DNA from: a virus | DNA length: 64,000 nucleotides | Virus record (IMG/VR): IMGVR_UViG_3300042894_005670 | Strand: one strand, 5' to 3' | In this document: piece after piece, positions 4,431 to 25,919 of the stretch | Position numbering within the stretch: position 1 is the stretch's first letter | Layout: every line of letters starts with the position of its first letter | Position numbers and translations under genes: made by a program | Notes under the pieces: generated by a model | Database searches by the model: none | Seen by the model: the letters and a program-made list of their open reading frames with translations, nothing else | Told to the model about the DNA's origin: nothing

Positions 4431-5245
4431 GAGCAGTTGAATTTATACTTGAAAATAAACATGTCGATGAAGGTTGGCGTGAGGTTGTTGCTGCTGCCAT
4501 ACCTATTGCAGGGCTAGGATTTCATGGTGCTAATTTATATAAAGGTGACAAAACTCCTCCTCAACCTGCAGCACAAGTTATTCAAGTTCAACCTAAACAA
4601 CAAGTAAAAACGTTTCAACCATCAGAACCAATTCGTCAGGTTGCTCCACAGCCAAAAGAAGCACCACAAGTTAAACAAAAACAAGTAAAAAAAGAATATA
4701 AACCACTTACACCAAATGAACATGCGTTGTACACAATAGCAGTTAATTCAGGATTACATGGTATTGAATTGGCTCAATTTTTAGCACAAATGCAGCATGA
4801 AAGTTGGGATTTTAAAAAGTTACGTGAAGTACCACAGGGTAAAGATTATTTTAAAAAATATGATCCAAAACATGCTCCAAAAACAGCAAAAATTTTAGGC
4901 AACAAAGCCCCAGGCGATGGCGAAAAATACAAAGGACGTGGGTTTATACAACTTACAGGACGTGATAATTACAAAGCTGCGGGTGATGCTTTAGGTATCA
5001 TGTTTGTTAACCCTAACCCAAAAGATAAAAAAGCTGAAAAATTAGCAGCACTTAATCGTAAAAAATTAGAAACAGATATGGTGCTATCCGCAAAAGTTGC
5101 CTTGTGGTATTGGTCAACACGTGTAAAACCTTATGTAAAAAATTTCTCTGATACTGCTGCAGTGACTAAATTTATTAATCCTGCTCTATATGGATTAAAA
5201 GATAGACATGAAAACTTTATGGATTACTTACAAAAAATAAAATGA
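4427..5245 (+). CDS. Glycoside hydrolase family 19 (lysozyme/chitinase-like)
   Basis: AQFLAQMQHES and GDGEKYKGRGFIQLTGRDNY. Confidence 0.9.
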   Translation: MRAVEFILENKHVDEGWREVVAAAIPIAGLGFHGANLYKGDKTPPQPAAQVIQVQPKQQVKTFQPSEPIRQVAPQPKEAPQVKQKQVKKEYKPLTPNEHALYTIAVNSGLHGIELAQFLAQMQHESWDFKKLREVPQGKDYFKKYDPKHAPKTAKILGNKAPGDGEKYKGRGFIQLTGRDNYKAAGDALGIMFVNPNPKDKKAEKLAALNRKKLETDMVLSAKVALWYWSTRVKPYVKNFSDTAAVTKFINPALYGLKDRHENFMDYLQKIK

Positions 5246-11008: not shown

Positions 11009-12391
11009 TTACAATATGTTGTATCGCTCAACGTTCACAGTGTCAAGCATAATACTTAACGGTGTGAAATCTCTTGCTCCTAAGATAGACTTCATGATAG
11101 ATGGTGAAAAACCACTTACCAATGCTGTACCTTGTGTATTAAACTTTACAGGAACATTGTCATGTGAGTTTAAATTCCAAAATACAATCTTAGGCACATC
11201 ATAACCTGCATCAGCATACTTCTTACCAATTGCTTTATATGCGGTATCATCAGCACGTACTGCTTGATTAAACTGCATATCAGAAAGAATCAATAAAAAC
11301 TTAGGCATATCTGCTTCAGGTACTTTATTGATAAGTGCTACAATTAGAATAGCATCAAATGCTGCCATGAGATTAGTTGACATTGACCAATCAGCACGAT
11401 TCATTTGATTCATTTTATCAACAATATTACCTTTTAATATTTCAATCTTGGTGTTTGTAGAAAATGTTAAAAACATATCCTTAAACGCACCACGATTTTT
11501 GTCAGCACAATATAATCCTAAAGCCACTGCAACATTTAAGCAAGTTAAGTTTTTAGCTCCACCTACAGAGCAACCCATTGACCCACTTACATCAACCATA
11601 GGCAACACATTAGCATCACTCATATAGTTAGGTAGTGCATCCCACTGTGCAATGCTCACATCAATAATACCACTTGATAAAGACTTAATTATGTCATGTG
11701 GGTATATGGCTGAAGCATTAATTTTAGTGGTTCCGCTAACTAACCCATCACGATACTCTTTGTAGCGATCATGGTCATTACGATCAAATGCTTTTTTGTA
11801 AATAGATGCAGCAATTGATGGTACATGTGAGTAATTTATTTTATCCCATTCTTTAGCGCACATATTAGTTTCAACAACTTTAGTTGCATTAACTAATAGC
11901 TTACGATATGTTTTAGGTGACAACCCCATAAAATTACGCAACTCTGCGGCAATTTGCCCTTTACGTGGCATCCACTTTGCACATAGTCCATCATTGTTTA
12001 ATAACGCTTCACGAATTGATGTATAAGCAAAGTTTCTCATGGTGCGTGTTGAAAAAATTAACATATCGTCCCAACGCCCAAAAGTAGGGATATGTGGGAT
12101 TACACGTACTAACATACTAGGATGGTTTATTTCCATGTATAAAAGTAAGTCACGTACTAATTGACGTTCACCTGCTCCACCACGCACATCACGTGCCCAT
12201 AGCAAAATTTTTGTAGCAATTTCAGGAGATTCTTGAAACGCTTTTTCAAATAGTGCGCTTATATCTTTACCACGTGATGCTCCAATTTTAAAGAATAAGT
12301 CTACAAGAGCATCACCTGTTCCATTAAACGCAGCCATACCATTTGTCGTAGTAGTATCAACTTCAGTTTCTACTGCTGTTTTAAATTCCAT
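11009..12391 (-). CDS. DUF2828-type helical + vWA protein (putative TROVE/Ro60-like RNA-binding protein)
   Basis: TTNG..A, RDVRGGAGER, GRWDD, AKWMPR, vWA MIDAS DVSGSM, LSDMQF, IVFWNL, VSGFSPS. Confidence 0.8.
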   Translation of the reverse strand: MEFKTAVETEVDTTTTNGMAAFNGTGDALVDLFFKIGASRGKDISALFEKAFQESPEIATKILLWARDVRGGAGERQLVRDLLLYMEINHPSMLVRVIPHIPTFGRWDDMLIFSTRTMRNFAYTSIREALLNNDGLCAKWMPRKGQIAAELRNFMGLSPKTYRKLLVNATKVVETNMCAKEWDKINYSHVPSIAASIYKKAFDRNDHDRYKEYRDGLVSGTTKINASAIYPHDIIKSLSSGIIDVSIAQWDALPNYMSDANVLPMVDVSGSMGCSVGGAKNLTCLNVAVALGLYCADKNRGAFKDMFLTFSTNTKIEILKGNIVDKMNQMNRADWSMSTNLMAAFDAILIVALINKVPEADMPKFLLILSDMQFNQAVRADDTAYKAIGKKYADAGYDVPKIVFWNLNSHDNVPVKFNTQGTALVSGFSPSIMKSILGARDFTPLSIMLDTVNVERYNIL

Positions 12392-14367: not shown

Positions 14368-14396
14368 ATCATAACAAAAACTTAATATCTTGTCAA
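14368..14396 (-). promoter_or_regulatory. Early promoter
   Basis: TTGACA-N17-TATGAT. Confidence 0.75.
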
Positions 14397-14413
14397 ACAT
14401 TGTTGTCTCACTT

Positions 14414-14860
14414 TTACAAAATTTCTTTCTTTAACGTATTCCACTCAGTAAATTGTAAGTATTCATTCTGCAAGTTTTCAATTTGTTTAAGAATTTGTTT
14501 ACCTTTAAATTCTCTCCATTCAGATACTATAGTTTGAGTCTTTTCAGTGTTACTTACATCAGCTACAAAGCCATCTATGCTTTCATACTTTACTGCCTTT
14601 TTAATCCATGCATAATCAACTACCATGCTTTTTGAGTAATCAAAGCCCCAATGATCACTATCTACTTCAATACGAGCGTTAATTTCATCCTTGCGGGTAA
14701 AACTGTCAAAACCACCTAAACAACTCAATACCGTGTACTTGTCATTATTGATATCAACAATAATAAAGTACGGACTAAACAGTTCGTGCCAATAATCCCC
14801 TATTCGGGGATTGGCAAATGCTTTTTGATTTGCTTCTAAATATCTATCTACAATTTTCAT
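14414..14860 (-). CDS. Hypothetical protein
   Basis: 148-aa ORF. Confidence 0.6.
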   Translation of the reverse strand: MKIVDRYLEANQKAFANPRIGDYWHELFSPYFIIVDINNDKYTVLSCLGGFDSFTRKDEINARIEVDSDHWGFDYSKSMVVDYAWIKKAVKYESIDGFVADVSNTEKTQTIVSEWREFKGKQILKQIENLQNEYLQFTEWNTLKKEIL

Positions 14861-14863
14861 TAA

Positions 14864-15241
14864 TTAGTACTCACTTGGAACCATAATAACATAACGATTG
14901 CGACCTTGAACTTCAGTTAATACTGCATACAGTTTGCAAGTATCGTAGGGGAAATCTGTGTACTCAATACGCTTGGTAAAGCTTAGGTCATTACCATCAC
15001 TAAAAGTAATCGTAGCACTACCTGTACGTGTTTTCTTTAAGGTAACGACAACAAACGTGCTGAAGTTAATTTTTTTAGCATTACGTGCATTGCGTAGCGC
15101 AAAAGTAATTTCATCCATCAACCAAAATGCACCGCAATTTTCTGCAACGTGCATAGCACCGTCAGTGAGCAAATCACCAAGAAACAATTTGTGATAGGAA
15201 GTGGTTCCGATGAATTCGCTAGTATCAAGAGCAGTAGTCAT
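14864..15241 (-). CDS. DUF6876-like protein
   Basis: F.GT..Y..., LTDG...VAE..GAFWL.D.I, IEYTDFP, M.PSEY. Confidence 0.7.
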   Translation of the reverse strand: MTTALDTSEFIGTTSYHKLFLGDLLTDGAMHVAENCGAFWLMDEITFALRNARNAKKINFSTFVVVTLKKTRTGSATITFSDGNDLSFTKRIEYTDFPYDTCKLYAVLTEVQGRNRYVIMVPSEY

Positions 15242-15271
15242 TTCAGTTCCTTATTAATCAGTACAGAAACA

Positions 15272-15300
15272 ATTATATATAAATTAGGATAGCTTGTCAA
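15272..15300 (-). promoter_or_regulatory. Early promoter
   Basis: TTGACA-N17-TATAAT; spacer contains TATCCTAATT. Confidence 0.85.
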
Positions 15301-15304
15301 TAGG

Positions 15305-15499
15305 TTATTGAAACTCTAGCATATTTGCAACATCGTCACCGTAAAGGTAACTTAAAGTTTTCCAAACTGAATCCGTTACTGAGTTATACTCACGATAATT
15401 AACGTAGAAGTTTTTGAAAAAATTATCATCACCACGAGCTTCAGCATATCGCTCTGCTCGCTGTAAAAAATCAAAGGCTGATACTGAGCGTGAGTCCAT
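15305..15499 (-). CDS. Small hypothetical protein
   Basis: AGGAG SD. Confidence 0.65.
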   Translation of the reverse strand: MDSRSVSAFDFLQRAERYAEARGDDNFFKNFYVNYREYNSVTDSVWKTLSYLYGDDVANMLEFQ

Positions 15500-15508
15500 C
15501 TTATACTC

Positions 15509-15676
15509 CTAGTATGGCTTAACATTGCACAAATGCAACGGATCTTTGTTAGGTTCATTTACCCATATCGCACACTCAAAACCAAGTGCTTTCGCTTGGG
15601 CAATTGCTTCATCAGCAGTAGGAAACGTACCCTTGTTGATACCGAAATTAATCATGTGAACAGTATAGGTTGTCAT
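15509..15676 (-). CDS. Small hypothetical protein (55 aa, not in track)
   Basis: MTTYTVHMINFGINKGTF...CNVKPY; AAGGAG SD. Confidence 0.65.
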   Translation of the reverse strand: MTTYTVHMINFGINKGTFPTADEAIAQAKALGFECAIWVNEPNKDPLHLCNVKPY

Positions 15677-15707
15677 TTCTGCACTCCTTATTAACTCAAC
15701 AGAATCT

Positions 15708-15736
15708 ATTGTAAATCAATTAGGATAAATTGTCAA
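15708..15736 (-). promoter_or_regulatory. Early promoter
   Basis: TTGACA-N17-TACAAT; spacer contains TATCCTAATT. Confidence 0.85.
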
Positions 15737-15741
15737 CTACT

Positions 15742-15942
15742 TTATTCAAACCTACAATCAGCTTGTCTTTCATTTATAAACTTCCAATATTTTTTAAGTT
15801 CTTTTTTAGCTTTAGCTACTGTTTTTGCTTTTGTAAGAACTTCAATATAATCTTCCTCACTATAGGTTTCAACTACCCAATGACCACCTGCTTCGTAATG
15901 ATCTAGCGCAAACTGCTCAAGTTCTTTAATCTGTTCTTCCAT
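15742..15942 (-). CDS. Small hypothetical protein
   Basis: GAGG SD before MEEQIKE. Confidence 0.65.
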   Translation of the reverse strand: MEEQIKELEQFALDHYEAGGHWVVETYSEEDYIEVLTKAKTVAKAKKELKKYWKFINERQADCRFE

Positions 15943-15953
15943 GTCAACCTCGC

Positions 15954-16130
15954 TTAAATCGTAAAAGTAACTTTGCGGCGTGATGCAATATAAACATTGC
16001 AAGCTACCACCACTTGATTAGAATACAGTGTATGACCGTGTTTTTGTATATCATCAATAACGTCTAGCATACCTTTACCTAAAAAGTCACATTCTTTATG
16101 TAGGATTTTAATTGCAGTAGAGATTTCCAT
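15954..16130 (-). CDS. Small hypothetical protein (58 aa, not in track)
   Basis: MEISTAIKILHKECDFLG...; GGAG SD. Confidence 0.65.
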   Translation of the reverse strand: MEISTAIKILHKECDFLGKGMLDVIDDIQKHGHTLYSNQVVVACNVYIASRRKVTFTI

Positions 16131-16143
16131 CTGTTACTCCGTA

Positions 16144-16341
16144 TTAAACAAAGTAAAAGGTAAAACCGTAAGAACCGTCTTTTCCAAGCTTAGCTTTTAG
16201 ATTTAATTCAGTGGTCAACTTCTTAAAAATTTTTTTGGCTTGATATGGAGTACAAATTACAGACAAAACTCCACTTGAGTAAAAAAAGCAATCATCCGTT
16301 ATTTCAGAAACCTTTTTTAACACGGTTTTTTCAAAGTCCAT
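16144..16341 (-). CDS. Small hypothetical protein
   Basis: AAGGAG SD. Confidence 0.65.
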   Translation of the reverse strand: MDFEKTVLKKVSEITDDCFFYSSGVLSVICTPYQAKKIFKKLTTELNLKAKLGKDGSYGFTFYFV

Positions 16342-16371
16342 TTAAAACTCCTTGTTGTTTACTATAGAAGA

Positions 16372-16400
16372 ATTATATATCTAAATAAATTTCTTGTCAA
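16372..16400 (-). promoter_or_regulatory. Early promoter
   Basis: TTGACA-N17-TATAAT. Confidence 0.85.
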
Positions 16401-16646
16401 TTAGGCAGGAACACAAAACCAACCTTCACGCTCGATCTTGCGTTTAGCATTAATCATAGTTTGACGAAGTTTCGTAACTTCTTTAGTATGTGGAGCACTG
16501 ATACCACCCAATGCTTTTAGTTTAAGCAGAGCAGCATCACGCTTTTTATAAGTTGGCACAGCATCAATTGGAACAAGAAAATTTCTGTTAAACATTGGGC
16601 TAGTGTAAAGAACTTTTTCCATCATTTGCTCCGTTTTGTTTACCAT
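16401..16646 (-). CDS. Small hypothetical protein
   Basis: ORF starts 6 nt after a -10 box (leaderless), or at the downstream Met after GGAG. Confidence 0.6.
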   Translation of the reverse strand: MVNKTEQMMEKVLYTSPMFNRNFLVPIDAVPTYKKRDAALLKLKALGGISAPHTKEVTKLRQTMINAKRKIEREGWFCVPA

Positions 16647-16652
16647 TTAAGT

Positions 16653-16681
16653 ATTGTATATCTAAATTAATTTCTTGTCAA
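16653..16681 (-). promoter_or_regulatory. Early promoter
   Basis: TTGACA-N17-TACAAT. Confidence 0.85.
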
Positions 16682-17064
16682 GCAATATTTACTGCTTCAT
16701 CAATCCAATGTAGGCGTTTTTGAATTTCTTCTTGTTGTTTAAAATCATCAGAATTAGTCTCATCAAGACTATCGTACATTTCCATAAGAACCATACGCTC
16801 TTCCATCATGTTACCAACATCAGCACCAACGTATGGATTTGTTGTTTTTTTGACAAAAGTGGTTGGTTCTTTCCAAGAAATTTTGTTGAAGAACCAATCG
16901 GGCACAGTGACTTTTACAGCGTAGTCAGGTCCGATAAACTTGACTGAAGCAATAGAAGTAGGAATCCATGCTTCCTTGTTGGTACGGGTATCAAGGAATA
17001 AGATTGCTTTGGCAGTCTTGGCTTTTGAGGTACCAACTAGTGAGTAGAGAGCTACGGTTTTCAT
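16678..17064 (-). CDS. Hypothetical protein
   Basis: TAKAIL...WIP.S...VPDW motif; AAGGA SD. Confidence 0.65.
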   Translation of the reverse strand: MKTVALYSLVGTSKAKTAKAILFLDTRTNKEAWIPTSIASVKFIGPDYAVKVTVPDWFFNKISWKEPTTFVKKTTNPYVGADVGNMMEERMVLMEMYDSLDETNSDDFKQQEEIQKRLHWIDEAVNIA

Positions 17065-17094
17065 GATTAGTTCCTTATTAACTCAACAGAATCA

Positions 17095-17123
17095 ATTGTA
17101 TATTAATTAGGATATGTTGTCAA
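17095..17123 (-). promoter_or_regulatory. Early promoter
   Basis: TTGACA-N17-TACAAT; spacer contains TATCCTAATT. Confidence 0.85.
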
Positions 17124-17124
17124 G

Positions 17125-17328
17125 CTATTCTTCAGAAAACAATTCACTTAATTCTGCAGGTGTTGCACCTGTCAACAAAAACTCACGCTCATCAGCACTG
17201 AGGTTAGGGAAAGCGTGTTGTATTAATGCGTCACTATTCACCCAATCAGTAATCATAGCTTCAGTAATAGGCAGGTCCATAGTATTAACACACCCTGTAA
17301 TCAAACTAGTCCGAGAAATCAACGTCAT
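17125..17328 (-). CDS. Small conserved phage protein
   Basis: TG..NTMDLPIT...LIQ.AFPNLSADEREFL.TG motif; AGGAG SD. Confidence 0.7.
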   Translation of the reverse strand: MTLISRTSLITGCVNTMDLPITEAMITDWVNSDALIQHAFPNLSADEREFLLTGATPAELSELFSEE

Positions 17329-17360
17329 ATCAAATCTCCTAAATCAATTACCACCATCCA

Positions 17361-17389
17361 ATTATAAGACAGTCATACATTCATGTCAA
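17361..17389 (-). promoter_or_regulatory. Early promoter
   Basis: TTGACA-N17-TATAAT. Confidence 0.85.
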
Positions 17390-18991: not shown

Positions 18992-19414
18992 TCACTGTCC
19001 ATGAGGACTCTCCTTTAAAAAACTTGTGTCAAATGTATCAGGGTCATCAACAAGTTGATTAGCATCAACTTCAACCCACTTACCATCAATTTTTACTTCT
19101 ATCTTTACTTTCTTTAACTCACGCTCTAAAGCACGTTCAGCTTCAATATATTCACCTGTACGTTTCATATACTCTAAATGAACCCACTTTTTAAACTTAT
19201 CAGTATTTGCCATTTTTTCAAAAGCAGTTTTACGATTATCTAACTGACTGCGACTTGACTCACTATAACCATGTGCACCACTTGGTCGATGAGTACAATG
19301 TACTGCTGAACTAGTTTTATTACGTTTTTGTCCACCTGCTCCTGTACCTTTGGTATACGACCAATCACAATCTTTGGCGGTAATACTAAAAAACGGATCT
19401 TTTGTTTGTTTCAT
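18992..19414 (-). CDS. Peptide release factor-like (RF-1/ArfB-type GGQ domain) protein
   Basis: GTGAGGQKRNKTSSAV...H.PSG....ESSRSQLDNRK.A; true start MKQTKD (track ORF extends over tRNAs). Confidence 0.88.
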   Translation of the reverse strand: MKQTKDPFFSITAKDCDWSYTKGTGAGGQKRNKTSSAVHCTHRPSGAHGYSESSRSQLDNRKTAFEKMANTDKFKKWVHLEYMKRTGEYIEAERALERELKKVKIEVKIDGKWVEVDANQLVDDPDTFDTSFLKESPHGQ

Positions 19415-19431
19415 ACTTTGTCCTATATTGT

Positions 19432-19506
19432 TGGCGGTCCCAATGGGAATTGAACCCATCTCTGAGCAGTGACAGTGCTCTATCCTAACCAATAGACGAT
19501 GGAACC
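19432..19506 (-). tRNA. tRNA-Asp(GTC)
   Basis: GAGCA-CTGTCAC-TGCTC arm, G73, CCA. Confidence 0.93.
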
Positions 19507-19512
19507 AAAATT

Positions 19513-19588
19513 TGGGGTGACTGATGAGAGTCGAACTCACACTGTACAGAATCACAATCTGCGGCACTACCATTATGCTACAGTCACC
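19513..19588 (-). tRNA. tRNA-His(GTG)
   Basis: Loop TTGTGAT, G-1:C73, CCA. Confidence 0.93.
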
Positions 19589-19590
19589 AT

Positions 19591-19665
19591 TGGTGGTAAT
19601 GATAGGAGTCGAACCTATACAACGCAGCGTATGAAGCTGTTGCACTACCATTATGCTACATTACC
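19591..19665 (-). tRNA. tRNA-Met(CAT), elongator-type (Met or Ile2 uncertain)
   Basis: Loop TTCATAC, paired acceptor stem, CCA. Confidence 0.82.
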
Positions 19666-23601: not shown

Positions 23602-24096
23602 TTATTTTATTTTTGGAACGATTTCACGATCCCAATAGCTTTTCTTGCCTATTCTAGAAGAAACAGCTTTGTCTACACCGACTATTGATTTCCATTTTTC
23701 GGATCGTGCTTTACTTTGTTCAACATCAAACCCACTATAGTCATCCCCGACCCATTCCCACTTATGATGCCATATCCAAGGGTCAGCTAATGGTTTAGTA
23801 ATTTTTACATTACCATCTCTAGTAACTTTAATAGATGTACCTACTGTAGGTTCATCTGCTGTATCAAAGTCAGGTGATGAAATAAATGCGATTGAACCAT
23901 CTTTTAAATCATAACGTACTACTGTATAATCAAAATCAGGTGGTAATTTAGAAACAGCTAACTTATACCATGACAACGGTATTTCACGTTTGAGTAATGG
24001 TGAATCAACATAGTCTTTGTGAACATAGATTTGTCCACCAATAACTTTACCAATTTTACGATTGGTTGATTCTGTTAATAATTCTTTAATTAGCAT
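23602..24096 (-). CDS. Hypothetical protein, probable head-packaged
   Basis: Start MLIKELLTES after AATAAATA; GK..GG.IYVHK...SPDFDTADEP...PWIWHHK. Confidence 0.65.
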   Translation of the reverse strand: MLIKELLTESTNRKIGKVIGGQIYVHKDYVDSPLLKREIPLSWYKLAVSKLPPDFDYTVVRYDLKDGSIAFISSPDFDTADEPTVGTSIKVTRDGNVKITKPLADPWIWHHKWEWVGDDYSGFDVEQSKARSEKWKSIVGVDKAVSSRIGKKSYWDREIVPKIK

Positions 24097-24118: not shown

Positions 24119-24192
24119 TGGCACCGACAGAGGGATTCGAACCCCCACAAACAGTTTTGGAGACTGCTATGCTGCCATTACACCATGTCGGC
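24119..24192 (-). tRNA. tRNA-Trp(CCA)
   Basis: Loop CTCCAAA, G73, CCA. Confidence 0.9.
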
Positions 24193-24199
24193 ATATATT

Positions 24200-24275
24200 T
24201 GGAGTAAGCGACAGGAGTTGAACCTGCATAAAACGGGGTTGCAATCCGTTCCCTAGCCATTCGGGTCACGCTTAC
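24200..24275 (-). tRNA. tRNA-Cys(GCA)
   Basis: Loop TTGCAAC, U73, CCA. Confidence 0.9.
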
Positions 24276-24281
24276 ATATAA

Positions 24282-24397
24282 AACAGGATGCATTATCGTT
24301 GCTCTACCATTAAGCTACATATCTTTTACAAGACATGGTAGGATTCGAACCTACAACAGACGGCTCCCGAAGCATCATAACTTGCTGTTAGCATCCT
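24282..24397 (-). ncRNA. YrlA-like RNA: circularly permuted tRNA mimic on a stem/ACAGCAA-bulge base (copy C)
   Basis: AGGAUGC-UAACAGCAA...T-arm GUAGG-UUCGAAU-CCUAC, acceptor CAUGUCUU-GUAA-AAGAUAUG, UA, D-arm GCUU-AAUGGUA-GAGC...GCAUCCU-GU. Confidence 0.85.
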
Positions 24398-24402
24398 AAA
24401 CT

Positions 24403-24480
24403 TGGCACCCCCTGTAGGATTCAAACCCACGACCTTACCGTTCGTAGCGGTACGCTCTAAGTTCACTGAGCTAAGGGGAT
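24403..24480 (-). tRNA. tRNA-Arg(ACG)
   Basis: TACCG-CTACGAA-CGGTA arm, CCA. Confidence 0.9.
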
Positions 24481-24488
24481 ATATTTTT

Positions 24489-24650
24489 ACATTCTTAAAA
24501 CAACTGTATCCAATTATCTTAAGAATGTAGTGGGGCCATCCCCCACTTGCTCATCTTACTCCTGTGTTATCGCCACAGTTTCATACCGAGACTCCGACCG
24601 TTCGTGGCATGTTTATCGTGCACCACTGAGACCTCGTTTCTCACACACGT
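24489..24650 (-). ncRNA. Candidate structured ncRNA of unknown class
   Basis: GC-richer, hairpin-dense: UGAGA/UCUCA, GUGGUG/UGCCAC, CUGUG/CACAG, AGUGGGG/CCCCACU and an 18-bp AU-rich hairpin. Confidence 0.6.
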
Positions 24651-24685
24651 AAAACAAAAAACCCTAGGGGTTTATTCCTAGGGTT
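24651..24685 (-). terminator. Attenuator terminator
   Basis: AACCCTAGG-AATAAACC-CCTAGGGTT-TTTTGTTTT. Confidence 0.9.
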
Positions 24686-24725
24686 CAGTGTAATCTTATG
24701 TACTATCTATGATTAGCCTGAACCC
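24681..24725 (-). promoter_or_regulatory. Antiterminator hairpin
   Basis: GGGTTCAG (24725-24718) pairs with CTGAACCC (24688-24681), which overlaps the terminator 5' arm; inner TAATC/GATTA helix. Confidence 0.8.
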
Positions 24726-24829
24726 CTGCCCCCAATATCCTCAAAATTATATGAGCGAGCATGGGGGATTGCACACCAACTTGGTTGTGTACCCTTTGCT
24801 AAACTCATCGTGTTTCTGAGACTTTTCAT
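24713..24829 (-). CDS. Leader peptide, 38 aa (not in track)
   Basis: MKSLRNTMSLAKGTQPSWCAIPHARSYNFEDIGGRGSG*; ATG lies 7 nt after the -10 box; stop codon inside the antiterminator. Confidence 0.75.
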   Translation of the reverse strand: MKSLRNTMSLAKGTQPSWCAIPHARSYNFEDIGGRGSG

Positions 24830-24836
24830 GTTTGTA

Positions 24837-24865
24837 ACTTTACCTTATAAAATTTACTTTGTCAA
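24837..24865 (-). promoter_or_regulatory. sigma70-type promoter of the leader/tRNA array
   Basis: TTGACA-N17-TAAAGT. Confidence 0.8.
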
Positions 24866-24944
24866 CTACTTTTGTATCTTAATGTAAGGTTATTTATACA
24901 TTGTTGTAAAAACCATACAAAAAAGCCATATTTTTTGCATATTT

Positions 24945-25064: not shown

Positions 25065-25919
25065 CTACTTTAAACCCATTTCTTTCCTAATTTGTGTTGC
25101 ACTTATACTTGTAATACTTTCGTCGAATGTTTCTTCACCACTTGTATATCCTACACCACGACCCCAACCAATATGTACGATGTTTGGTACTAACATAATT
25201 TCATATTGCCCTTGGTACAATGGGTCTAAATCACGTTTAATATAGCCCTTTACTTGTTCTACGTTAAAGGGGTTACTACCTTGCCATCCTTGAACATCAC
25301 GTATTTGTATAATAACTTGTCCTGTGCGTTCAAGTAATCGTTCAAATAGGGCACGATGACCTGCATGCCAAGGTTGCCAACGTCCTAGCATCTGCACCGT
25401 TTCTTTACGCCAATCAAAAGTTGGTCTACGTTTTTCAGCCATAATATGTTTACCAATAAACTGCACCCAAAAATCAGCATTTTTTTCAGTAATACGGAAA
25501 TCATATATTTCAGGTGGTATGAATGCTTTGTTAGTATCTTCATATCTACCTGCATCAATTGTGTCCATCCATATCGTCCAATCTGCTTTAAAATTGTTAC
25601 GCATTTCAACTAATGGTGCTACAAAATCACAAATAACATAGTCACTACCACTGTTTATTGCAAAATCTGCCATACGTATTGATTGACGTATACGTCCTTC
25701 AGTGCTGAAATCCCAATCATTATACCGTTTACGAACATCATCAGCGTTAAACCATTTTACTGTAGGTTTCCATTGGAGAGGAACTATCTCGTACTCAGCT
25801 AATTTAGACATAGGTATTTCTGTAACACTTCTTGGTTGTTCTAGATAAGCTTTTAGCCGTTCAGCTAGGTATGTCTTGCCCGCCCCAGGCAGTCCCATGA
25901 TAAGAATTTTAGTAGTCAT
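25065..25919 (-). CDS. Adenylylsulfate kinase-like P-loop domain fused to a cytidylyltransferase-like domain
   Basis: MGLPGAGKT, NADDVR, DFVAP, DTNKAF.PP; C-terminal GRWQPWHAGH...ISATQIR. Confidence 0.8.
   Translation of the reverse strand: MTTKILIMGLPGAGKTYLAERLKAYLEQPRSVTEIPMSKLAEYEIVPLQWKPTVKWFNADDVRKRYNDWDFSTEGRIRQSIRMADFAINSGSDYVICDFVAPLVEMRNNFKADWTIWMDTIDAGRYEDTNKAFIPPEIYDFRITEKNADFWVQFIGKHIMAEKRRPTFDWRKETVQMLGRWQPWHAGHRALFERLLERTGQVIIQIRDVQGWQGSNPFNVEQVKGYIKRDLDPLYQGQYEIMLVPNIVHIGWGRGVGYTSGEETFDESITSISATQIRKEMGLK

Follow-up and report, generated by a model that had tools for sequence, protein, structure and literature searches.

A candidate leader-peptide attenuator upstream of the tRNA island of a freshwater phage

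Attenuation by translated leader peptides has been described for amino-acid operons, where the leaders are trpL, hisL, pheL, thrL, leuL and ilvL (PMC1183508), and for bmrCD of Bacillus subtilis, whose leader BmrB, an open reading frame (ORF) of 53 codons, is a general sensor of slowed translation (PMC4191407); vmlR (PMC9226507) and msrD (PMC10314930) have similar antibiotic-sensing leaders. In the literature searched, we found the logic of leader attenuation described only for amino-acid, synthetase and drug-resistance genes, and no published description of the attenuation of phage tRNA genes. A further leader, pyrL of the pyrBI operon of Escherichia coli, has 44 codons without amino-acid-specific runs, and its outcome is set by the closeness of ribosome and polymerase. 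The tRNA genes of phages are seen as counter-measures to codon mismatch and to tRNA-cleaving defences (PMC10264068, PMC11555353). Here we describe a unit of 215 nucleotides (nt), in which promoter, ORF, antiterminator and terminator are all defined, on the minus strand of the phage record IMGVR_UViG_3300042894_005670 from a freshwater environment. The stretch of 64,000 nt that was analyzed is called the window, and all coordinates refer to it. The unit sits 5' of tRNA genes and, judged from its sequence and its predicted folds, we lean towards reading it as a ribosome-mediated transcription attenuator of a structured RNA and the tRNA island. To our knowledge, the control of phage tRNA gene expression is essentially undescribed. 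If the reading is true, the unit is a direct feedback loop, in which a phage gauges decoding speed with a test message and makes tRNAs when decoding is slow.

The unit starts with a promoter of the sigma-70 type (24837..24865, minus strand) that consists of TTGACA at 24865-24860, a spacer of 17 nt, and TAAAGT at 24842-24837. The -10 box is followed after 7 nt (tacaaac) by an ATG at 24829, which opens the leader ORF (24713..24829, minus strand), comprising 38 codons and a TAA at 24715-24713 (leader nt 115-117). The sole word resembling a Shine-Dalgarno (SD) sequence is AAGG, 13 nt 5' of the ATG. Next comes an intrinsic terminator (24649..24686, minus strand; stem 24686-24659, nt 144-171) with 10 pairs (5 G-C), a loop of 8 nt, and a U-rich UUUUUUGUUUU tail, which is the only strong terminator on this strand in the upper tRNA island. 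The 8-nt word GGGTTCAG in codons 35-38 pairs exactly with CTGAACCC, which overlaps the 5' arm of the terminator. Behind the terminator, in this order, lie a structured RNA, tRNA-Arg(ACG), a permuted tRNA-like RNA, tRNA-Cys and tRNA-Trp. A preliminary description of the window had listed the promoter, the 7-nt spacing to the ATG, the missing SD site, the 8-nt complement and the order of the downstream genes, and all of its sequence statements are correct. Between the terminator and the downstream RNA genes no promoter is visible in the window. An internal TATAAT (codons 27-28) was considered as a promoter of the downstream RNAs and rejected, as it is destroyed in one relative (L003).

Pattern scans and exact-protein look-ups recovered 27 metagenomic loci, which represent 10 distinct versions of a 430-nt region; the L115 and L116 types were contributed by the exact-protein look-ups. 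The genomes around the element are about 82% identical in all relatives, and the tRNA block is 93-97% identical within a close clade. The leader of the more distant L003 type is 79% identical to that of the window, yet the terminator and the structured RNA 3' of it are nearly invariant. Three peptide variants occur: the window type (including a K2R change in L001), the L115 type (G13V), and the L003 type, in which 16 of the 38 residues differ. The ORF is open and of equal length in 10 of 10 distinct copies. The -35 box is likewise invariant in all ten, and the distance of 7 nt between -10 box and ATG is invariant in all copies and unique to the leader ORF, while the spacer varies and the -10 box reads TAAGGT in L003.

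The substitutions in the close clade (7 distinct sequences) follow a coding pattern. Among 13 nucleotide changes, 11 are synonymous, each of them at a third position. The remaining two are non-synonymous: K2R and, in L115, the G-to-T step by which GGT became GTA, a change that arose either by two substitutions or by a frame-restoring pair of -1/+1 indels. Given that 21.6% of the possible single changes are synonymous, the binomial probability of this pattern is 2.4e-6 (2e-4 for third positions alone). An antisense ORF (24709-24819) and an overlapping ORF in the +1 frame (leader nt 68-127) were rejected as alternatives, since the variable sites fall on their second codon positions. Because of the synonymous pattern and of a frame that is open at the same length in ten copies, we conclude from sequence comparison that the leader ORF is genuine and is translated. 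The peptide of the close clade is under strong purifying selection (omega of about 0.05). Between L003 and the clade there are 25-26 differences, spread over the codon positions as 8/10/7, with an omega of 0.6-0.8 and replacements at the neutral expectation; the two regimes differ at approximately p = 0.001 (hand calculation, 2:11 vs about 19:7). The L003 branch may have gone through a burst of adaptive or of relaxed change, and the shift coincides with the loss of the downstream tRNA-Arg(ACG) and of the Y-RNA-like gene.

The second line of evidence is a pair of competing structures. The predicted antiterminator, hairpin A (24680..24726, minus strand; leader nt 104-150, 47 nt), consists of an outer stem GGGGUUCAG/CUGAACCCU and an inner stem UAAUC/GAUUA, and its 5' arm (nt 104-119) comprises codons 35-38 and the stop codon. 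The predicted energy of hairpin A is -18.0 kcal/mol in the window and -15.8 kcal/mol in L003, that of the terminator, which is 100% identical in all copies, is -15.3 kcal/mol. Both structures have the 7 nt GAACCCU in common and therefore cannot coexist; the 3' word of hairpin A, CUGAACCC, doubles as a terminator arm. The minimum-energy fold of the full-length leader contains hairpin A, and forcing the terminator costs about 5 kcal/mol. When the nucleotides that a ribosome on the stop codon would cover are removed, the terminator is the only predicted fold. In every copy, the inner stem of hairpin A begins with the three bases of the stop codon (nt 115-117), so that by geometry a ribosome at the stop would mask the antiterminator in all copies, as had been proposed.

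The stems of these structures are kept among the relatives. The leader folds more stably than expected (z = -3.0), and across eight aligned sequences 98.6% of cells are paired in hairpins H2, H3 and A. In the region of hairpin A, 2 of 28 paired columns are variable compared to 11 of 21 unpaired ones (Fisher 7e-4), and for the whole leader the counts are 8 of 60 and 34 of 87, respectively (7e-4). The changes thus sit in loops and internal loops rather than in stems, with one G-C to G.U change in hairpin A; formal covariation is too sparse for proof (71/500 shuffles). Hairpin H3 (24729..24767, minus strand; leader nt 63-101) lies inside the ORF and is formed by CCCCCA...UGGGGG with an inner CUCA/UGAG. 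It is paired in 100% of cells, shows one compensatory change (C-G to U-A) in L003, and does not sequester the 5' arm of hairpin A; according to the folds it may be a pause element or an element of the 'region 1:2' type. The antiterminator/terminator geometry claimed earlier is accordingly real, mutually exclusive and conserved at the level of predicted folds.

From these elements the following mechanism can be proposed. Transcription would begin at the ATG (24829) or immediately beside it; behind the advancing RNA polymerase, a ribosome would translate the leader. Upon reaching the stop codon, the ribosome would cover approximately nt 100-128, taking the generally known size of its footprint, and hence the 5' arm of hairpin A; GAACCCU would then be free, the terminator would form, and the transcript would end at about 24650. 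A ribosome that is slowed within approximately the first 29 codons, or that is absent, would instead allow hairpin A to form first and to remove the 5' arm of the terminator. Hairpin A would be free while decoding proceeds up to about codon 29, because the leading edge has not yet reached nt 104, and the early placement of nearly all residue types agrees with this limit. Read-through would yield the structured RNA, tRNA-Arg, the Y-RNA-like RNA, tRNA-Cys, tRNA-Trp and what lies beyond, and the output (tRNAs) would act on the input (decoding speed). Inferred among these steps are that the start is leaderless, that ribosome and polymerase are coupled, and which codons become limiting.

What the leader might sense is a separate question. 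The preliminary description saw in the ORF a sampler of codons for almost all tRNAs, on the grounds that its 31 distinct codons specify 19 amino-acid types (Val being absent), each of which has appeared by codon 31. These counts, as well as the synonymous codon pairs listed in support, are correct. Among stop-free 38-codon windows of the 64,000 nt (34% GC), at least 19 amino acids are found in 1.7% and at least 31 codons in 0.3%, and the leader is the only one of 43 ATG-initiated ORFs of 35-41 codons with at least 19 amino acids. We note that the ORF had been picked for diversity itself, and that its GC content (45%) is similar to that of the surrounding RNA genes. Stop-free shuffles of its own bases give 19 amino acids in 7.4% and 31 codons in 13% of cases; the diversity of the single sequence, in which the use of different codons for repeated amino acids had been called unexpected, is therefore unremarkable. 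The last seven codons are Gly-rich, form a G-rich hairpin arm, and contribute no new residue type. Signals beyond chance are found only in the relatives, in the coding substitution pattern and in the stem conservation of the terminator-competing hairpin.

Whether diversity is maintained while the peptide drifts can be followed in the relatives, and the outcome is mildly positive for amino acids and negative for codons. The L003 peptide, despite 16 replacements, contains all 20 amino acids; Val was acquired two times, and His, Tyr and Phe, although lost from their original positions, reappeared at others. When neutral drift is started from the consensus of the clade and conditioned on an open frame, 1.3% of trials reach 20 amino acids (p = 0.013) and 10% reach at least 19. 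In L115, Gly13 is replaced by Val, the one residue type missing in the leader of the window; of the possible single non-synonymous changes, 5.3% would increase diversity, and the chance that one or both of the two events seen do so is 10%. The full set of 20 was thus reached independently in L003 and L115. Both lineages combined (Fisher's method) give p of about 0.01, which is suggestive and concerns two lineages. As some natural leaders hold 19 and others 20 amino acids, they are predicted to respond differently to limitation of valine or of tRNA-Val.

Several observations speak against sampling of all tRNAs. Synonymous-codon diversity is not conserved among the copies, with 31 distinct codons in the window, 32 in L003 and 29-30 in the others (29-32 per copy). 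A rule that merely keeps every residue type predicts 27% synonymous changes, where 11 of 13 are seen (p = 3e-5), and most lineages lack Val despite a tRNA-Val(UAC) in the array. The match to the array, a comparison with little power due to the broad coverage of the array, is ordinary for the base composition: the leader samples 15 of the 17 anticodon classes (composition-matched p = 0.19), and 25 of 37 leader codons match compared to 23.6 expected (p = 0.37). Sampling is fitted, on the other hand, by the two lineages with 20 amino acids and by the only two changes that add a class: L001 has CTA for CTC and L115 has GTA for GGT, which create codons for tRNA-Leu(UAG) and tRNA-Val(UAC), respectively. 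Of the pan-tRNA-sensing attenuator as originally drawn, the translated ORF and the conserved switch thus stand, while the codon sampling is the weaker part, given ordinary composition-matched diversity and purifying selection on the peptide itself. That the leader is kept maximally diverse on purpose, as a universal sensor of decoding capacity rather than an attenuator for one amino acid, is on sequence grounds a rather unlikely extension of the attenuator reading; in such a design, shortage or cleavage of almost any tRNA would stall the ribosome 5' of the antiterminator and switch the tRNA island on. The suggested link to anticodon nucleases is purely conjectural.

A narrower specificity was considered as well. 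Adjacent Trp and Cys codons (codons 18-19; 24773..24778, minus strand) are conserved in L003 as W18 and C19, and together with Arg-CGC (codon 25) and Ser-UCA (codon 26) they match, within codons 18-26, the four tRNAs just behind the terminator. The cluster is located just 5' of the 5' arm of H3, where regulatory codons of the trp type would sit, and its minimal span of 9 codons has a composition-matched p of 0.021 (post hoc). A specific Trp/Cys/Arg sensor was nevertheless set aside: the codons are not enriched overall, and no feature but their grouping within codons 18-26 is mildly unusual. A CGC to TGC change in the lineage without tRNA-Arg(ACG) has a chance of about 10% anyway. We favor neither a general nor a block-specific sensor.

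A number of points weigh against an attenuator. Without a ribosome the predicted fold is the antiterminator, and no clear 'protector' corresponding to the trp-style 1:2 hairpin is apparent; control would therefore require that ribosomes load efficiently onto a leaderless RNA. Leaderless translation is probably the simplest reading, but it is deduced from a consensus promoter with a weak -10 box. The same context, aaacATGA, also follows the promoter of tRNA-Met (25064), where the ATG cannot be a start codon; as this paralogous promoter runs straight into the tRNA, the leader ATG may partly be a feature of the promoter context. The contrast between an omega of about 0.05 in the close clade and the near-neutral L003 branch is not explained by a plain sensor of speed. 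There is no regulatory run of codons, the sole tandem amino-acid repeat being Gly-Gly. Finally, pattern and peptide scans of IMG/VR, metagenomes and genomes place the element in one narrow clade, and the tRNA regions of Merlin, PM135 and Hallingskeid contain no similar module.

The foremost alternative is a free-standing phage protein of 38 residues that acts in trans, with a promoter and terminator of its own and with hairpin A as mere 3' structure of its mRNA. The ratio of 2 non-synonymous to 11 synonymous changes, far below what a rule for diversity alone would give, is what such a protein would produce; tiny ORFs are common within phage tRNA islands, and the burst of replacements on the L003 branch would suit a protein engaged in an arms race. 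We still regard this explanation as doubtful. The ORF lacks an SD site, whereas all neighbouring early genes have strong ones, and the peptide has neither a hydrophobic core nor a membrane segment. A free-standing protein would give no role to a conserved hairpin that specifically destroys the terminator of its own gene, and it would leave the downstream RNA genes without a promoter. Nor does the product match a known family: profiles of PHROGs, Pfam and NCBIfam gave no match at E up to 10, GenBank phages gave none, and no relative was accepted among 1.8 billion representative proteins. The three matches obtained in the latter set were discarded, P0002 (GC-rich, 93 residues) because it looks spurious, and P0001 (E = 4.4e-8) and P0003 because they exceed 2,000 residues and align only over short repeated stretches. 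Weak tblastn matches ('MQHLRSLE...', about 11 loci) were rejected as distant homologues, being internal to a large structural protein.

An attenuator of a different kind, in which a specific nascent peptide would stall its own ribosome when triggered by a ligand or host factor, as TnaC, SecM and the Erm leaders do, and which does not read tRNA supply, would account for conservation at the amino-acid level alongside a conserved switch geometry, all the more so as a core K-G-T-Q-P-x-W-C-A-x-P is conserved and common to L003. In known arrest peptides, the residues nearest to the peptidyl-transferase centre are usually critical; the 16 residues that differ in L003 include some near the C-terminus. 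In addition, the peptide is not similar to known arrest peptides or leader families, and a stall at or near the stop codon would favor termination and not read-through, which makes arrest an improbable explanation.

It is very improbable that the unit is a non-coding small RNA (about 175 nt from promoter to terminator) with an ORF that arose by chance from balanced composition: the structured fold and its conserved stems, a stop-free frame in 10% of shuffles (with 19 amino acids in 7% of those), and the even spread over codon positions of 25 differences in L003 (8/10/7), through which the ORF would stay open by chance in 40% of cases, all fit, but the three-base periodicity and synonymy of the close clade (2.4e-6) have no RNA-only explanation, and the frame is kept through the GGT to GTA change of L115.

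The ribosome-mediated attenuator, which we continue to favor, would control a set of RNA genes beginning with the structured RNA (24481..24648, minus strand) as the first product of read-through. This RNA has a fold z-score of -5.3, ends in a hairpin of 18 pairs located 8 nt before tRNA-Arg, and hardly varies among lineages, including L003, with flanks of about 80% identity. It has no match in Rfam, GenBank phages or GTDB genomes. The genes that would be gated behind it (24119..24480, minus strand) are tRNA-Arg(ACG), the YrlA-like permuted tRNA-like RNA (24394-24285), tRNA-Cys and tRNA-Trp. The permuted RNA consists of a T-arm, a loop-closed acceptor stem and a D-arm, closed by AGGAUGC/GCAUCCU, and matches Rfam YrlA in its tRNA-like part with 36.5 bits, short of the threshold (69); no such RNA is present at the corresponding position in the L003 lineage. 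A protein of 460 residues encoded elsewhere (11009-12391, minus strand) matches phrog_850 'RNA-binding protein' (E = 5e-146) and, on the basis of this match, is possibly a Ro60-like partner of the tRNA-like RNA. In L115 a structured insert of about 105 nt, which is absent from the window, is found between tRNA-Arg(ACG) and the Y-RNA-like gene (L115:1791-1895); its ends are complementary (GCTATGTCGCAG ... CTGCGACGCCA).

The same strand carries 17 promoters of the TTGACA type, with early genes that have leaders of 27-33 nt and TAAGGAG, and the promoter core AAAGTAGTTGACA of the leader unit is common to the promoters at 25069 and 15741. In the region 14368-17389 (minus strand), near-perfect sigma-70 promoters (TTGACA, 17 nt, TATAAT), three scoring 12/12 and four 11/12, each lie 5' of a small early gene, with leaders of 27-33 nt that contain TAAGGAG or TAAGGAA. 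Upstream of the promoter of the leader unit, a TATAAATA word resembling a late promoter of T4 (24891..24898, minus strand), to which we assign this function by inference, is invariant in all relatives; it could give rise to a second, longer transcript.

Two further genes of the island may be mentioned. A gene for a protein of 164 residues (23605-24096, minus strand) is situated between tRNA-Trp and tRNA-Ser, a location within a tRNA island found only in the present clade. Elsewhere its family occurs in T4-like phages, either beside genes for T4 gp13-like, dNMP-kinase and sheath proteins or beside ADP-ribosyltransferase and RNA-ligase genes, and more distant homologues lie in T4-like structural regions without tRNAs. 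Between tRNA-Asp and tRNA-Lys, an ORF (18992-19651, minus strand) encodes a GGQ motif (…GTGAGGQKRN…) and, judged from this motif, looks like a minimal peptidyl-tRNA hydrolase or release-factor domain. The neighbouring gene for a kinase-like protein of 290 residues has 264 relatives in IMG/VR, only the 3 closest of which possess the tRNA array and the element. Among the cultured phages in GenBank, no similarity to the region is found beyond tRNA-Met. A search of Rfam with the unit returned nothing above threshold, the best scores being 19.1 bits for SpF51 and 16.9 bits for His_leader (thresholds 49-50), and no T-box. The His_leader match (24653-24771, minus strand; E = 2.2) takes in the full length of the model and runs from mid-leader through the terminator; being at noise level, it is no evidence, although it mirrors an attenuator-like layout.

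In comparison with known systems, the unit resembles the trp and his attenuators in that a short translated ORF is followed by an antiterminator that overlaps an intrinsic terminator in sequence, and in the predicted outcome that a terminating ribosome at the stop codon blocks the antiterminator while a slowed ribosome leads to read-through. Unlike these attenuators, the leader has no tandem codons for one amino acid, is leaderless in the proposed reading and devoid of an SD site, and apparently lacks a 1:2 hairpin to enforce termination when translation is absent; the genes under putative control are phage RNA genes (the structured RNA and tRNAs) instead of biosynthetic enzymes. With pyrBI it shares a long leader peptide without specific codon runs. 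There, the ribosome itself blocks the terminator hairpin and close coupling results in read-through, whereas in the present leader 27 nt separate the stop codon from the terminator stem behind it, such that close coupling should give termination.

Mini-ORFs and terminators ahead of tRNA blocks exist in at least one unrelated cultured phage. In phiCbK (JX100813), an ORF of 45 codons with a strong terminator (2741-2878) precedes the Pro-Pro-Lys-Lys-Leu-Leu-Leu-Ala-Ser-Ser block (block 2), and 31 of its 44 residues are Pro, Lys, Leu, Ala or Ser (composition-matched p = 4.5e-4). A second ORF of 32 codons (4542-4640), which contains QFVRQIQVV and is likewise accompanied by a strong terminator, precedes the Phe-Val-Ile-Ile-Val-Gln-Gln-Ile-Gly block (block 3; p = 0.056). 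The arrangement of mini-ORF, intrinsic terminator and tRNA block is that of the window, but the leaders of phiCbK are skewed to the amino acids of their own block, while the window leader is maximally diverse, and the sequences are not similar. BmrB-type leaders, in turn, answer to drugs that target the ribosome, control resistance proteins, possess an SD site, have the terminator inside the ORF, and show no sequence relation to the leader described here. With an ORF free of codon runs and with alternative terminator and antiterminator structures, BmrB nevertheless represents the nearest published logic.

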